Counted from the first letter of the stretch, positions 4,956-48,018 are shown. The stretch is DNA of 64,000 bases from a virus (IMGVR_UViG_3300036790_000419:1-64000); one strand, 5' to 3'. The notes: generated by a model not told the origin, from the letters alone. Numbers and translations: made by a program.

Positions 4956-5218
4956 TGAACGTCTGGCGCGACGTCACCGAGTCGGTCCTGCGCGCCGGGT
5001 GCGGCAGCGTGCTGGGCCCGGACACCCGCCGCCGTACCCGCTGGTGGGACCTGCGCCTGGAGTGCGGGCACCACGTGGAGCGGCACGTCCGCTACCGCAA
5101 GCTGGACTCCCCGGCACGGCAGGGCACCCGCCGGGCTGCGGCCGACGTGCTGCCCCCGGTGGCCCGGGTGGCCTGCCGGGAGTGCGCGCGGCTGGCGCTG
5201 AAAGAAATGTTCTCTTGA
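4955..5218 (+). CDS. hypothetical small Zn-binding protein
   Basis: ECGH...CREC; coupled start. Confidence 0.6.
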   Translation: MNVWRDVTESVLRAGCGSVLGPDTRRRTRWWDLRLECGHHVERHVRYRKLDSPARQGTRRAAADVLPPVARVACRECARLALKEMFS

Positions 5219-10319: not shown

Positions 10320-10847
10320 ATGGGCCCCTACTGCAAGTACTGCGACCAGCGCTGCTTCCTGCCGCGCGTTATCCCCGGCGGCCCGGACAAGGGCAAGCGG
10401 GTCCTCCTGGCCACGTGCGAGGCGGGCATGGCGGCCGACCTGGAGAGGGACGGCTACACGCACGAGACGGCGCTCAACCCGGTCACCCGGACCTCAGCCG
10501 CGGAGGCGCTGGCCGCTGAGGTCCGCGGCGAGGCTGCCCCGGCTGGCATCCAGCGGATCACCAGGCGCGATGACCTGGTGGCCCTGAAGAACGTGCTCGG
10601 GATGCACCCTGACTGGCACGAGCCGGACGGGCGGGACGTTACCGCGCGGGTGTTCGGCAGTGACTTCGACAATGCCGGGAACTGGGGTACTGCCGAAGCG
10701 CTGCAGCGCAAGGCCGAACGTGCCAGGGGCATTCCGCGTTCCGGCTCCCTGGAGCTGGGGGTGACCATCTACCGGGACGGCAAGCCGGTGGCCGAGGTCA
10801 ACCTGGCCACGCTGCTGGCGTGGGCGACCGGCTACGAGGACGACTGA
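10320..10847 (+). CDS. hypothetical protein
   Basis: After promoter 10254 and leader; CKYC motif. Confidence 0.75.
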   Translation: MGPYCKYCDQRCFLPRVIPGGPDKGKRVLLATCEAGMAADLERDGYTHETALNPVTRTSAAEALAAEVRGEAAPAGIQRITRRDDLVALKNVLGMHPDWHEPDGRDVTARVFGSDFDNAGNWGTAEALQRKAERARGIPRSGSLELGVTIYRDGKPVAEVNLATLLAWATGYEDD

Positions 10848-11249: not shown

Positions 11250-11306
11250 CCTCCGGAGAGCCCCTGTCCGGCGATGACCGGACAGGGGCTCTCGCGCGTC
11301 GCTACG

Positions 11307-11978
11307 ATGCCGCTCATGCCTGAGTTCGCCGACCTGTACGCCGAGCACCTGCCTGCGGCCCGCAGGGCGGCCCTGGCCCTGGTGCCCGCCGACGCGGCCG
11401 ACGACATCGCGCACGAGGCGTTCGCCCGCGTGCTGGCCCGCCAGGCAGCCGGGGGAGGCCCTGACGGGGCGTTCCGCCCCTACCTGCTGGCAGCGGTGCG
11501 CAACCTGGCGCGGGACTGGCTGGCCGAGCGCAGGCGCACCGTGCCCGCTCCCCTGGACCCGCGCGCGGTGCGCGTGCCCGGTGCCGGCGAGCTGGTGACC
11601 GCGGCCGAGGAGCGGCGGATGACCCGCCGGGCGTTCGGCTCGCTGCCGGCCCGCTGGCGCGCGGTGCTGTGGCAGACCGAGGTGGAGGGGCGCACGCCCG
11701 CCGAGCTGGGGCAGGCCTCCGGCATGAGCCCCAACGCGGTGGCCGCGCTCGCGCTGCGGGCCCGGCTCGGGCTGGCGCTGGCGTGGCAGCGCGAGCGCGG
11801 CACCCAGGAGCGGCTGACCGGCCCCGCTCCGGCCCTGGTCAGGCTGGCGGAGAGAAAATACCAGAGAGCACTTGACACGAGTCAAGCTGATCGTTTATCT
11901 TTAAGAGGTCAGGCAGGGAGAAGCGGGTTCGAGTCCCGCCCCGTCCCGAATGGGGCGGGATGGTCTAGGCCAGGTTAA
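11307..11978 (+). CDS. ECF-type RNA polymerase sigma factor
   Basis: Region 2 (ADDIAHEAFARV..FRPYLLAAVRNLARD) and region 4 (LPARWRAVLWQTEVEGRTPAELG..GMSPNAVAALALRAR); the C-terminal tail overlaps the downstream promoter and RNA. Confidence 0.85.
   Translation: MPLMPEFADLYAEHLPAARRAALALVPADAADDIAHEAFARVLARQAAGGGPDGAFRPYLLAAVRNLARDWLAERRRTVPAPLDPRAVRVPGAGELVTAAEERRMTRRAFGSLPARWRAVLWQTEVEGRTPAELGQASGMSPNAVAALALRARLGLALAWQRERGTQERLTGPAPALVRLAERKYQRALDTSQADRLSLRGQAGRSGFESRPVPNGAGWSRPG
11871..11901 (+). promoter_or_regulatory. promoter of the candidate ncRNA
   Basis: Palindrome with perfect TTGACA, 18 bp spacer, TATCTT; predicted +1 near G11907; no leader motif or start codon follows. Confidence 0.75.
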
Positions 11979-12430
11979 GGCGCCCTGCCGGGCACAACCG
12001 GCTGACCGGTCGCATGCTCACCCCGGAGACGCGGGGCGAGTTGCTGGCGCAGGCTGGCTAAGACTTCCCGGGCCGCCGCGCGGCGGCACCTGGCGAACGC
12101 CTGAGTCGCGGGGCGCGAAGCTCCCGGACAACACGGCTCCGGACCAGGGAAAGCCGCACGGCAGCCCGGGATCCCAAAACTCAACAGAGCTGCTGGCCAG
12201 TGCGCCTCAATCAGGAGCCGATCTCCGGCCCTGGCCAGTACAGACGAGGGGTCTCGTTCGAGGCGAGGCGGTATCCAGTCCGCCTTTACCTGCCACCCGG
12301 CGCAAGCCGGGCCGTGGCCGACACGTGACGGCAGGGCTTGGGGTTCGTGACCCGACAGTGAACTCGGTTCCCCCTCGCGAACGCCCTAGCGGATGTCTCG
12401 GTTGCCTGCCCTGCCCGCTAGGGCGTTCGC
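11907..12430 (+). ncRNA. candidate ~525-nt structured ncRNA with a 5' permuted tRNA-like (YrlA-like) module and a 3' anti-leader hairpin
   Basis: Bounded by a promoter and a 16-bp hairpin; no credible ORF; many nested stems; T-arm GCGGG-TTCGAGT-CCCGC at 11923-11939. Confidence 0.7.
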
Positions 12431-12496
12431 ATTGTCTTGACTCAAGTAAAGCTGACAGGTAAGCTGTAGCCAGGTAATCGAGTGAAGGGCGGGCAC

Positions 12497-12907
12497 ATGA
12501 GCGAGGAAATCGAGATCACCGCCGGCGACGGCGACGAACTGGCCGAGGAAGTTTGCAACGCCGTCGAGGCGGCGAGCAGCCAGGACAAGATCACGTGGGT
12601 GACCGACCACGGTCAGCGCGTCGCGGCCATCGTGCCGGTCGACGTGGCCGAGGCGCACGAGCAGATGATCGAGAAGGTGCTCAGCACCCCCGTGGGGAAG
12701 CCGAAGGTGCGGTTCCCGAATGTCACGGTGTGCCTGAGCGTGAACCACAGCGGCAGCACCGGGGCCATCATGGCGACCGTGGCCAAGGCGATGAAGGAAG
12801 CCGGCTGCGAGGAGCGCGACATCCGCACCTTCCGCGAGGGCGTGTTCGGCCGCGCGAGCTACGACGAGGTGCTGCAGTTCGTCATGCGCACGGTGAACGT
12901 CGAGTAG
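12497..12907 (+). CDS. Phd/YefM-like N-terminal domain fused to a small phage domain
   Basis: ITWVTDHGQRVAAIVPV resembles the Phd/YefM beta-hairpin; after promoter 12436 and leader. Confidence 0.6.
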   Translation: MSEEIEITAGDGDELAEEVCNAVEAASSQDKITWVTDHGQRVAAIVPVDVAEAHEQMIEKVLSTPVGKPKVRFPNVTVCLSVNHSGSTGAIMATVAKAMKEAGCEERDIRTFREGVFGRASYDEVLQFVMRTVNVE

Positions 12908-19025: not shown

Positions 19026-20120
19026 ATGGCACAGGCACTGACCACAGGCCCGCCGGTCAAGTACTCCGACGGCTGGCTCAGGCACGACATCCCCGGCACC
19101 CCGTTCTTTGTCAACGAGACCCCGAAGGGGTCGTCATTCCATGTGCTGGAGGCAGGCGCGGCAGCGTGGGGCGGTGCCCACGCGCACGGGAAGCGCGGCT
19201 CACTTCGCGCGGCGCTCAAGCTCGCTGAGGGCCTGGTGCCGAGCACCCCGGCTGACATCATGGCCCGGGTCAAGGAGACCACCCCTTATGACCATGAGAC
19301 GTTCGACCGCATGGCCTACCTGGCTGAGCCGGGACGGCGCTTGTGGGTCCTCCCGGTCTACGGCGACGATGGCTACATCGGGCTAGGCGAGGCAGCAACC
19401 GCGGCCGGCTTGCACGCTAGTGGCATCGAGATGATGTTCGGTTCCCCGTCTAGTGTCTGGTGCGTGGCGTTCACCACCGACAGCGGCCGGGAGAGCCAGC
19501 TTCACCCCATCGCGCTCAGCACCGTGGAGGAGGCGCGCGAGAAGTGGTGGATTCTCAGCCATGACGGTCGCAACCTGGTCAGCGGCGGGCACTCCGACCG
19601 CGCGAGGATGGAGCGCCTCGCGCTCGACTACCCCGGCAGCCAGGTTTACCAGGGCTGCATGTTCATCCGCGAGGACGGGAGCGTGTTCACGACGCTGGTG
19701 TCCTTCGCTGACCCGTACCTGGCTGAGCTGACCGCGCGGCGCAAGGCTGACCGTGCCGCCATGGCCCGCCGGGTAGTCGACCTGGCCGGCGAGTACAAGC
19801 TGGCAGCATGGCACAGGCCGGAGCTGCCGGGGACCAAGCGGACCGACGTCGACCTGGAGTGCCCGCACGGGCTGAAGGTGACCGTCAGGTTCGAGGCCAG
19901 CGGCACCCGCGCCCCGGATACCTACCTGCTGAGCTGGCACGGGGTGGAAGAGGGCGTGCGGCTGCACCCGGGCATGTTCAACCATGTCAACCCGTGCCAC
20001 GGGTGCAAGGCCACCGACGTGGCGCACGGGTTCGCTCAGCTGCTGCGCATCCTGCGGGAGCGGTTCGCGGTCATTCGCGACGACTCCGCGTTCATCCGCG
20101 ACCCGGAGAGCGCCCGATGA
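19026..20120 (+). CDS. hypothetical multidomain protein
   Basis: After promoter 18963 and the full leader. Confidence 0.8.
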   Translation: MAQALTTGPPVKYSDGWLRHDIPGTPFFVNETPKGSSFHVLEAGAAAWGGAHAHGKRGSLRAALKLAEGLVPSTPADIMARVKETTPYDHETFDRMAYLAEPGRRLWVLPVYGDDGYIGLGEAATAAGLHASGIEMMFGSPSSVWCVAFTTDSGRESQLHPIALSTVEEAREKWWILSHDGRNLVSGGHSDRARMERLALDYPGSQVYQGCMFIREDGSVFTTLVSFADPYLAELTARRKADRAAMARRVVDLAGEYKLAAWHRPELPGTKRTDVDLECPHGLKVTVRFEASGTRAPDTYLLSWHGVEEGVRLHPGMFNHVNPCHGCKATDVAHGFAQLLRILRERFAVIRDDSAFIRDPESAR

Positions 20121-47634: not shown

Positions 47635-48018
47635 CTACCGCACGTCCACGGTCGCCCCGGCGACCTGGAGTGCCTCTACGGCCTTTTCCGCGGTCGCGCG
47701 GTCTGCGTTCTCCAGTACGGTGACCGGAGCCCGCTCCACCAGGTCCTTGGCCTCCTTGAGGCCCAGCTTGGTGAAGACCCGGACCTCCTTGATGACCTGG
47801 ATCTTCTTGGGGCCCGCGTCCTCGATGACGACATCGAACTCCGTCTGCTGGTCTTCCTCCTCCGGTGGCGCGTCAGCGACGGCGGGCGGCGTGCCGTTGA
47901 CCGACACGGCGGCGGTCACCCCGAATGTCGTCTCGAAGTCCTTCACGAACTCCGCCAGTTCCAGCACGGTCATTTCCCTGAACGCACCCATCAGGTCGGC
48001 GCTGCTCAGCTTCGCCAT
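47635..48018 (-). CDS. rplL: 50S ribosomal protein L7/L12 (bL12)
   Basis: MAKLS...[23 protein letters not shown]; [36 protein letters not shown]; AAGGAGG RBS. Confidence 0.95.

Follow-up and report, generated by a model that had tools for sequence, protein, structure and literature searches.

A modular non-coding RNA with an almost invariant core in soil phages, and its possible role as a trans-acting regulator of early gene cassettes

To our knowledge, very few large and highly structured RNAs of bacteria or phages are known, and each of them has opened up new biochemistry. In phage T4, the RegA protein shuts off some 30 early mRNAs together by acting on the regions where their translation is initiated. 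RNAIII of Staphylococcus aureus is reported to mask the Shine–Dalgarno element in coa mRNA, so that initiation is blocked (PMC2837412), and GOLLD and ROOL are reported to be large RNAs of bacteria which assemble into homo-oligomers (PMC12286853); actinophages use a non-coding RNA region of 400–500 bp for prophage replication (PMC7157519). Here we draw attention to an RNA gene in a phage from a soil metagenome (IMG/VR virus record IMGVR_UViG_3300036790_000419; 148.9 kb, G+C content 70%, completeness estimate 98%), of which the first 64 kb (64,000 nucleotides, nt) make up what we call the window, and supply the coordinates used below unless another source is named. Positions 12008–12377 are the body of a stand-alone, non-coding, + strand RNA gene of about 525 nt that belongs to a previously undescribed RNA family, and the signature of the family is an almost invariant core (12089–12148). 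The reading that we prefer, with a probability of about 0.5, is that of an RNAIII-like trans riboregulator of some 30 early cassettes, with a partner-docking core.

Transcription unit and family

The gene extends from a promoter to a terminator-like hairpin (Table 1). The promoter is the sole sigma-70-like site between 11000 and 13500, where 0.1 would be expected, and the palindrome that encloses its −35 element heads early cassettes, there being 33 + strand copies in the genome; it is also found upstream of the core in 11 homologues. The next cassette promoter (12437) starts six bases past the terminal hairpin and is followed by the leader of the gene at 12497–12907. From this succession of promoter, terminal hairpin and next promoter, we infer a stand-alone unit on the + strand, about 525 nt long. 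The layout from promoter to terminal hairpin is repeated in 10–11 homologues, and U:G wobbles in the covarying P1 rod (see below) are compatible with the + strand only.

The first-pass annotation of this stretch had seen in it a densely structured 370-nt body overlain by non-coding ORFs (open reading frames), and both parts of that description were borne out. The body folds with a minimum free energy (MFE) of −194.2 kcal/mol, compared with −171.5 ± 6.4 kcal/mol in dinucleotide shuffles (z = −3.55; 0/100 shuffles), and for the whole RNA (11900–12440) the folding z is −6.17. From about 11790 to 12480, the G+C content of third positions (GC3) is 0.8 or lower in every frame, as against 0.9–1.0 in the flanking genes. 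Might the stretch nevertheless be a gene for a protein? An open frame with an ATG does exist (ORF 11950–12462, 170 amino acids), but GC3 in its frame is 0.61–0.71 (real genes exceed 0.9), a Pfam search of it gave no domain match, and the homologues differ by indels of every length, with whole modules absent. Protein-level conservation of this ORF, which the first-pass annotation had named as something that would refute it, amounts to zero relatives among 5.8 billion protein clusters, and we give a coding function practically no credence.

Thirteen homologues were gathered, five of them in IMG/VR phages of 125–152 kb (one copy each) and eight in soil metagenome fragments. The protein product of the neighbouring sigma factor gene, used as bait in IMG/VR, brought in four phages of 125–152 kb, with CCTGGCGAACGC.TGAG common to all and located downstream of the sigma gene; pattern scans supplied the fifth phage (L010) and the eight fragments, chance matches being weeded out by inspection. 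When six phage genomes were searched with R1, a covariance model built on the core, each proved to have a single copy (E values from 1e-13 to 1e-23). The predicted length of the RNA ranges from about 335 nt in L006, through 525 nt in the window and 550–800 nt in L003, L024, L022, L017 and L005, to about 1,150 nt in L010, and outside the core it is largely unalignable between relatives, the adjacent sigma proteins of which are 50–85% identical. In the closest relative (L004:4590–4790), a leader-plus-ORF cassette (GGGCAGGCACCCG-ATG, about 60 codons) lies between the promoter and the RNA, so that in this phage the RNA would form the 3′ portion of a transcript that also codes for protein.

Beyond this set, the family left no trace in the collections searched. 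Blastn with the RNA gave zero matches in GenBank phages (50,697 records), the core pattern had none in 185,579 prokaryote genomes (one genome per species), the exact 37-nt pattern of the 5′ T arm matched nothing, and the downstream protein, used as IMG/VR bait, had no relatives. Chance accounted for five of the ten matches to the exact core pattern in IMG/VR (L011–L015, in coding DNA) and for three of the 12 in the metagenome scan (L023, L026 and L028); none of the 24 further loci from a second-motif scan of IMG/VR was confirmed by the core covariance model, and the seven matches to the D3 hairpin pattern in prokaryote genomes were all fortuitous, five lying in one conserved coding gene of Thermoleophilaceae metagenome-assembled genomes (MAGs) and two in unrelated MAGs. 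At gathering thresholds, Rfam 15 (4227 models, including GOLLD, ROOL and OLE) gave no match in the whole window; with permissive filters (E ≤ 10), the region 11700–12600 gave five chance-level matches, the top one scoring 19.1 bits where the cut-off is 69, and 12008–12347 was free of them. ARAGORN found no tRNA or tmRNA (transfer-messenger RNA) genes in the window. The first-pass annotation had looked to Rfam and to covariation among viral-contig homologues for a decision, and the want of any Rfam family even at E ≤ 10, together with 13 homologues showing compensatory changes, supports its description of a large multidomain phage RNA that is not recognisably GOLLD or ROOL.

The invariant core

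The family signature lies within a helix that the first-pass annotation had recognised (TCCCGGGC, 12066–73, with GCCCGGGA, 12164–71), although the core itself had escaped it; the helix is present just as it was described, and forms the outer part of the covarying P1 (Table 1). The consensus of the core is CCUGGC-GAAC-GCNUG...CA-C-NGC-UNCG-G-A-CCAGG, and 36 columns are invariant across the 14 core sequences. This invariance is concentrated in internal loops and bulges (GAAC/UNCG, the unpaired A and AA, and the bulged C and A), which are flanked by short covarying helices, and such a concentration argues for a specific tertiary fold or a binding surface.

RNAalifold, applied to the 14 sequences, recovers the P2–P3–P4 fold of the core. 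In the core alignment, 94.7% of cells are paired, compared with 84.7 ± 1.3% in shuffles and 32–46% with slid partners, and seven pairs show compensatory changes (covariation score 0.265 vs 0.080; 0/500 shuffles). Compensatory changes affect four of the seven pairs of P1 (one of them, for example, being G:C in 10 sequences, C:G in two and A:U in one), pair 12091:12146 of P2 (U:A in 12, A:U in two), pair 12101:12135 of P3 (G:C in eight, U:A in two, C:G in one, A:U in one, A.G in two) and the second pair of P4, 12106:12128 (C:G in eight, A:U in four, U:A in one, G:C in one). All the variable paired positions in the signature covary.

Invariant nucleotides in internal loops and bulges between short covarying helices are also the typical pattern of a ligand aptamer or small ribozyme, for which the rest of the RNA would be a carrier. 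No riboswitch or ribozyme family of Rfam was matched, however, and the core is not followed by an expression platform, the next gene having its own promoter, so that we regard a ligand-binding or catalytic core as improbable.

Three further observations concern the core. The internal loop between P1 and P2 has GAGUA (or GAUUA) opposite YGAAAC in L003, L004, L005, L022, L021, L025 and L027, which is the sarcin-ricin or loop E pattern; in the window it has GGCA opposite GGAAAG, and the pattern is therefore not universal. A kissing contact between CGAAC of the core and a GUUCG loop was considered and ruled out as a family-wide feature, GUUCG being missing from L003, L005, L024 and L025. Finally, the core strands without P4 (GCGAACG-N-GUGAG / N-AACAC; 12093–12103 and 12130–12134) match GCGAACGGGUGAG-UAACAC of 16S rRNA at 17 of 19 positions, in a universally conserved segment around Escherichia coli position 110 (the comparison being with L044, the rRNA locus of a Thermoleophilaceae MAG); a match of this quality has a chance expectation, roughly estimated, of about 0.1 after multiple comparisons, and may be fortuitous. 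In 16S rRNA, the matched segment continues with (A)ACCUGCC, which resembles the anti-leader loop described below. A blastn-short comparison of the RNA with the same kind of locus (Thermoleophilaceae rRNA) yielded only chance words of 8–12 nt; in view of the chance estimate, we keep the split match as no more than a curiosity.

The terminal loop and the early cassettes

What might such an RNA act on? In 10 homologues, the stem of the terminal hairpin covaries freely while the loop sequence (C)UCGGU(U/A)UGCCUGCC is kept. There are 39 + strand copies of GGCAGGCA in the genome, most of which immediately precede the start codon of a promoter-leader cassette in the region from 3.6 to 35 kb; the complement, TGCCTGCC, has nine occurrences, only the copy at 12403 lying in a hairpin loop. 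Two elements of the leaders are complementary to the loop (UGCCUGCCCU): AGGGCAGGCA, overlapping the Shine–Dalgarno sequence and the spacer before the cassette start codons, and an upstream box, CAACCGAG. Uninterrupted complementarity extends over 13–16 bases for the leaders of the starts at 19026, 22527 and 32262, and over 10 bases for that of 16424. For 20 leaders, the predicted duplexes have a mean energy of −27.6 kcal/mol, compared with −18.8 ± 4 kcal/mol for Shine–Dalgarno-like or random sites, all 20 being more than 1.4 standard deviations stronger than the controls (mean, 2.2 standard deviations), although these energies leave intramolecular structure out of account. By prediction, then, this RNA shares with RNAIII a C-rich hairpin loop complementary to the Shine–Dalgarno region of several mRNAs.

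In the mechanism that we propose, the RNA would act in trans, its terminal loop pairing with AGGGCAGGCA and CAACCGAG of the leaders and so masking the ribosome binding sites of the approximately 30 early cassette mRNAs that share one leader. More tentatively, some conserved partner, whether a protein or a component of the machinery for translation or RNA decay, may dock on the invariant core and decide the fate of the bound mRNAs, while H1, H3 and the greater part of D3, as peripheral hairpins, would mainly stabilise the RNA and set spacing. Complementarity suggests such a mechanism only for the 3′ loop, which adjoins the body.

Beside the simplification in the duplex energies, several points weigh against this proposal. 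No RNA run with this sequence is listed among the public sequencing runs, and the transcript ends are for that reason predictions; the terminal hairpin is without a U tract (AUUGUCUU) and was not called by a simple terminator scan. Covariation in D3 is weak, and P2 and P3 each rest on a single covarying pair, most core pairs never varying and the P3 pair being A.G in two sequences; moreover, the invariance of the core could equally mean a catalytic site, a pocket for a ligand or a tertiary fold of RNA alone. L010, which has diverged furthest among the homologues, keeps the core and is without the anti-leader motif, and has instead seven sense copies of GGCAGG (four of them GGGCAGG), where 1.3 would be expected. 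It follows from L010 that the role of the core is separable from antisense pairing, and that a model of trans repression cannot apply to every member of the family without modification.

The L010 RNA (L010:800–1945, core at 1392–1509, in a contig of 150,822 bp) is a giant version that starts with the leader-like GGAGGCAGGCAGG; it lies in a 1.45-kb stretch that shows no codon bias and is delimited by a promoter (762) and a hairpin with a U tail (near 1940), and a + strand TGCCTGCC is present in this genome about 1 kb upstream of the RNA promoter. The L010 RNA may be a decoy for whatever binds the leaders. In a bolder version of our reading, which we consider unlikely, the invariant 60-nt core would have a novel functional fold with which the RNA docks on the translation apparatus (recalling the 17/19 likeness to 16S strands) or on some other conserved machine, the RNA would be an RNA-only master regulator of the early regulon, the counterpart in RNA of RegA, the anti-leader loop would serve most lineages to recognise about 30 mRNAs, and the L010 lineage, with its seven sense leader motifs, would have switched to a decoy.

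That L010 retains the core without the anti-leader loop would also suit an 'ornate' machine made of RNA alone, as GOLLD and ROOL are, in which a large tertiary fold, perhaps a homo-oligomer, would be unrelated to the leaders and the core would be a tertiary contact. The range of sizes (335 to about 1,150 nt), the modularity, the location in phages and the extreme conservation of unpaired nucleotides all recall those RNAs. On the other hand, GOLLD, ROOL and OLE were not matched in Rfam even at E ≤ 10, the gene is 76 kb from the tRNA cluster, and an anti-leader loop kept in 10 homologues would need a separate explanation; this, too, seems to us unlikely.

Table 1. The RNA gene of the window and its parts, in 5′ to 3′ order
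Feature	Position	Strand	Description
Promoter of the RNA gene	11872–11901	+	TTGACA, 18 nt, TATCTT; −35 element inside palindrome CTTGACACGAGTCAAG
5′ module with tRNA-type T arm	11905–12007	+	adjoins 12008–12377; begins with leader-like GGUCAGGCAGGGAG
Hairpin H1	12017–12040	+	CUCACCCCG / CGGGGCGAG; in the MFE structure of both folds
Core rod with closing helix P1	12066–12171	+	12066–73/12164–71, GCCG 12075–78/CGGC 12159–62 and GCGGC 12080–84/GCCGC 12153–57; encloses P2, P3 and P4
P2	12089–94/12142–48	+	CCUGGC 12089–94 / G12142, bulged A12143, CCAGG 12144–48; part of the invariant signature
Internal loop P2/P3	12095–98/12138–41	+	GAAC/UCCG (family UNCG); part of the invariant signature
P3	12099–103/12132–37	+	GCCUG 12099–103 / CA 12132–33, bulged C12134, GGC 12135–37; part of the invariant signature
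Unpaired A and AA	12104; 12130–31	+	between P3 and P4
P4, variable hairpin	12105–29	+	part of the signature element 12089–12148
A-rich linker	12172–12190	+	AAAACUCAACAGAG; consensus AAYUSAAYAG; unpaired in folds
Hairpin H3	12191–12240	+	UGCUGGCCAG / CUGGCCAGUA, with apical hairpin
3′ domain D3, multi-way junction	12245–12377	+	closed by CGAGGG/CCCUCG
Parts of D3		+	invariant hairpin 12251–69; hairpin GAGGCGG/CCGCCUU 12265–86; arm CCUGCC/GGCAGG 12289–12335 with two small hairpins; hairpin 12341–53
Terminal hairpin, terminator-like	12377–12430	+	perfect stem of 16 bp; 22-nt loop (12393–12414) with UCUCGGUUGCCUGCCCUGCC, antisense to cassette leaders

Peripheral modules, neighbouring genes and known systems

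Around the core, the body is modular, lineage-specific hairpin domains being gained and lost with A-rich linkers between them. The five complementary pairs picked out in the first-pass annotation all lie exactly where it had placed them, and its two hairpins (12251–69 and 12341–53) are likewise present, but comparison does not support every one of them. The complementarity of CTCACCCCG (12017–25) and CGGGGCGAG (12032–40) is real, yet it has no comparative support, H1 having no equivalent sequence in any homologue and thus being lineage-specific; its support is thermodynamic only. In L019 and L020, the 5′ module is missing and P1 begins about 3 nt past the predicted start, so that both the 5′ tRNA-like module and H1 are dispensable.

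The next pair, TGCTGGCCAG (12191–12200) with CTGGCCAGTA (12231–40), belongs to H3, a helix that comparison does support: in single-sequence folds, used in place of a MAFFT alignment that was not structure-aware and had five pairs only, a long hairpin of differing sequence occupies this position in the window, L027, L006 and L021, while in L019, L020, L004 and L022 it is missing and the linker leads directly into the next domain. Almost every homologue has the linker motif AAYUSAAYAG again, either following P1 or ahead of the next domain. The linkers (AAAACTCAACAGAGCTG) have the words ACTCAA(G) and AGCTG in common with cassette promoters (TTGACTCAAGTAAAGCTG at 12437), a resemblance in sequence which hints that the RNA may have grown by the fusion of terminator-promoter junctions stripped of their genes.

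D3 is common to the window, L004, L022, L027, L019 and L020, and L006 has it in miniature, reduced to 38 nt (seven sequences in all). Among six of these sequences, 87% of its cells are paired and four pairs are compensated, the statistics being weak; the closing pair changes from C:G to G:C, a pair of CCCGGC/GCCGGG from C:G to U:A and one of hairpin 12341–53 from U:A to C:G. Both of the remaining pairs of the first-pass annotation fall here, CGAGGGG (12245–51) with CCCCTCG (12371–77) and CCTGCC (12289–94) with GGCAGG (12330–35), and comparison supports both helices. The second has a wider resonance. Stems of leader-like GGCAGG and anti-leader-like CCUGCC are found inside the RNA at 11912–18/11983–89 as well as at 12289–94/12330–35, and in hairpins of L003 (about 5020–5050) and L005; they are internal copies of the proposed loop–leader duplex, and CCTGCC is present in four copies in the RNA of the window, where 0.36 would be expected. 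In addition, the + strand of the genome has just two copies of GCGAACGCC, one in the core (12093–12101) and one that makes up the 5′ side of the terminal hairpin (12377–12385), and there are no others. Judged by sequence, the 3′ strand of the terminal hairpin could form 9 bp with the core as an alternative partner, which might act as a structural switch; repeats of this type (8–9 nt) are present in the window, L004 and L027, and not in L003, L006 or L022.

Peripheral modules that come and go among close relatives might conceivably be no more than decayed cassette junctions, that is, former terminator hairpins and promoter remnants, functionless except for carrying the terminal hairpin. The ACTCAA(G) that linkers have in common with the centre of the cassette promoter palindrome would fit such an origin, as would the leader-like beginning of the RNA, since cassettes begin in the same way. 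Decay would, however, leave unexplained 36 invariant columns and compensated core pairs in phages whose sigma proteins are only 50–85% identical, and likewise the invariant hairpin 12251–69, which belongs to a stretch with 98% identity over 52 nt to L004. We consider it very improbable.

That hairpin and its neighbour at 12341–53 had been taken in the first-pass annotation for T-loop-like structures. A T-loop is a five-nucleotide U-turn with a reverse Hoogsteen pair between U1 and A5, in a 7-nt loop on a stem closed by G:C. For 12341–53 the claim is not supported: the loop UUCGUGA (12344–50) has U at T-loop position 5, where A (A58) is needed, and in L022 a U:A to C:G change affects the stem GGGUU/GACCC, a change that speaks for 5 bp and a triloop and is at odds with a stem of only 3 bp under a loop of 7 nt. 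For 12251–69 the sequence is compatible with two folds. UUCGAGG (12257–63) fits the T-loop sequence pattern, but MFE folding prefers GUCUC/GAGGC with a GUUC loop and an adjacent 7-bp hairpin over the 6-bp stem with UUCGAGG loop of the first-pass annotation, and the hairpin, being invariant in all homologues that have it, amid otherwise unalignable flanks in the comparison with L004, offers no variation.

T-loops bear on a further idea, that this is a tRNA-like or Y-RNA-like (YrlA) molecule, the body of which would dock tRNA-binding or tRNA-modifying factors. UUCGA-type loops are found at 11928–34 and possibly at 12257–63; the T arm of the 5′ module (11923–39) resembles those of the phage's own tRNAs, and there is a partial match to the YrlA model over that T arm only (11923–11954; model positions 31–62 of 114; E = 0.37). 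A phage with 29 tRNAs, moreover, is one that invests in translation. Against this, the 19.1 bits of that match compare with a cut-off of 69 and lie outside 12008–12377, Ro (TROVE) and RtcB had no match in the 148.9-kb genome (the same searches detected them in two and 10 reference genomes, respectively), ARAGORN called nothing in the window, a T-loop is not supported for 12341–53, and T-arm modules are absent from several homologues. Membership of the YrlA or tRNA-like families is largely refuted, and a function of this kind appears scarcely credible.

The RNA gene lies just downstream of a gene for a sigma factor like those of the extracytoplasmic function (ECF) class (starting at 11274; domains Sigma70_r2 and r4_2), itself preceded by a gene for an Lsr2-like protein (10320–10847, by profile search). 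The arrangement is syntenic in related phages, the RNA gene coming directly after the sigma gene in five of them and within about 1.5–2 kb of it in a phage with 50% sigma identity. In the window, the first stop of the sigma ORF (11274–11978) is only at 11978, so that the frame runs across the RNA promoter and 5′ module, though codon bias ceases at about 11850; in L005 and L006 the sigma gene terminates upstream of the promoter. The place directly after a sigma gene is the usual one for an anti-sigma gene, no such gene is evident here, and the core has the shape of an extended rod interrupted by internal loops: might the RNA then be a decoy for the sigma factor or for RNA polymerase, like 6S RNA, an 'anti-sigma' made of RNA? 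The phages are collinear relatives, however, which makes synteny weak evidence, and neither 6S nor Ms1 was matched in Rfam. Core-like words are not enriched in the non-coding DNA of the late region, GAAC...CGT patterns are not enriched in non-coding DNA either, no GAAC/CGT-type promoter set emerged, and no datum ties the core to the sigma factor; we rate this idea a shade below that of a ligand-binding or catalytic core.

Elsewhere, the phage encodes a DnaB-like helicase and a DNA polymerase, 40–50 kb from the RNA gene; its proteins are distant from those of cultured phages, the top match being a Microbacterium phage helicase (38% identity). A bL12 gene (47635–48018) had been pointed out in the first-pass annotation. 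All 29 tRNA genes found with the Rfam tRNA model lie at 88.3–93.3 kb, in a cluster (88,358–93,261 of the complete record, G000, outside the window) with a cassette-type promoter palindrome upstream, at 88052; the tRNA cluster and the bL12 gene indicate a phage that invests heavily in translation. The helicase and polymerase bear on the idea of an RNA-primed replication origin like ColE1 RNA II or the ori RNA of parABS-carrying cluster A mycobacteriophages, with which the size and structure of our RNA are compatible. They are, however, far from the RNA gene, the cumulative GC skew has no turning point near 12 kb, parABS was not noticed beside the RNA (the adjacent genes scanned matched only the Lsr2-like protein and the sigma factor), and the anti-leader loop would be left unexplained. 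An origin therefore commands even less belief than decayed junctions. For an ornate fold, an aptamer or ribozyme, a sigma decoy, a replication origin or decayed junctions, there is no positive evidence except resemblance.

The family offers a compact invariant core supported by covariation, naturally occurring forms from a minimal one of 335 nt to a giant one of about 1,150 nt, which reveal what parts are dispensable, and plausible, testable targets in the form of the leader common to about 30 early genes; from the hairpins that close relatives have gained or lost, one can also see how a large RNA grows. If our preferred reading of a trans riboregulator is true, this would be the first phage regulon that an RNA switches en bloc, with a novel interface between RNA and partner in the core.

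How, then, does this RNA compare with those already known? In logic, though in logic only, it is like T4 RegA, in that one phage factor would serve some 30 early mRNAs, the factor being a protein in T4 and an RNA loop here. In form it parallels RNAIII, which is likewise a many-hairpin non-coding regulator of about 0.5 kb with 3′ C-rich loops, including that of the terminator hairpin, complementary to the Shine–Dalgarno sequences of several mRNAs (PMC2837412). The two have no sequence or structural homology, however: our RNA is encoded by a phage, its targets would be the phage's own 30 or so early cassettes, with binding that is here a prediction, its invariant core has no RNAIII counterpart, and it encodes no peptide. 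With GOLLD, ROOL and OLE it shares large size, an elaborate and modular fold and conserved unpaired nucleotides, GOLLD and ROOL being often phage-borne (PMC12286853), but it has no covariance-model match to them, is not beside tRNA genes, belongs to high-GC soil phages and has a loop antisense to defined mRNAs. It resembles YrlA and other Y RNAs in having a tRNA-like T arm within a larger non-coding RNA, but the score is far under the cut-off, no Ro or RtcB gene accompanies it, and the module that holds the T arm is neither conserved in the family nor part of 12008–12377. With the ori RNA of cluster A mycobacteriophages and ColE1 RNA II, it has in common a structured non-coding RNA of 400–550 nt, in an actinophage in the former case, in which the RNA itself is functional (PMC7157519); it differs in its neighbours, among which parABS was not noticed, in its lack of similarity to GenBank phages and in the absence of a GC-skew signal.

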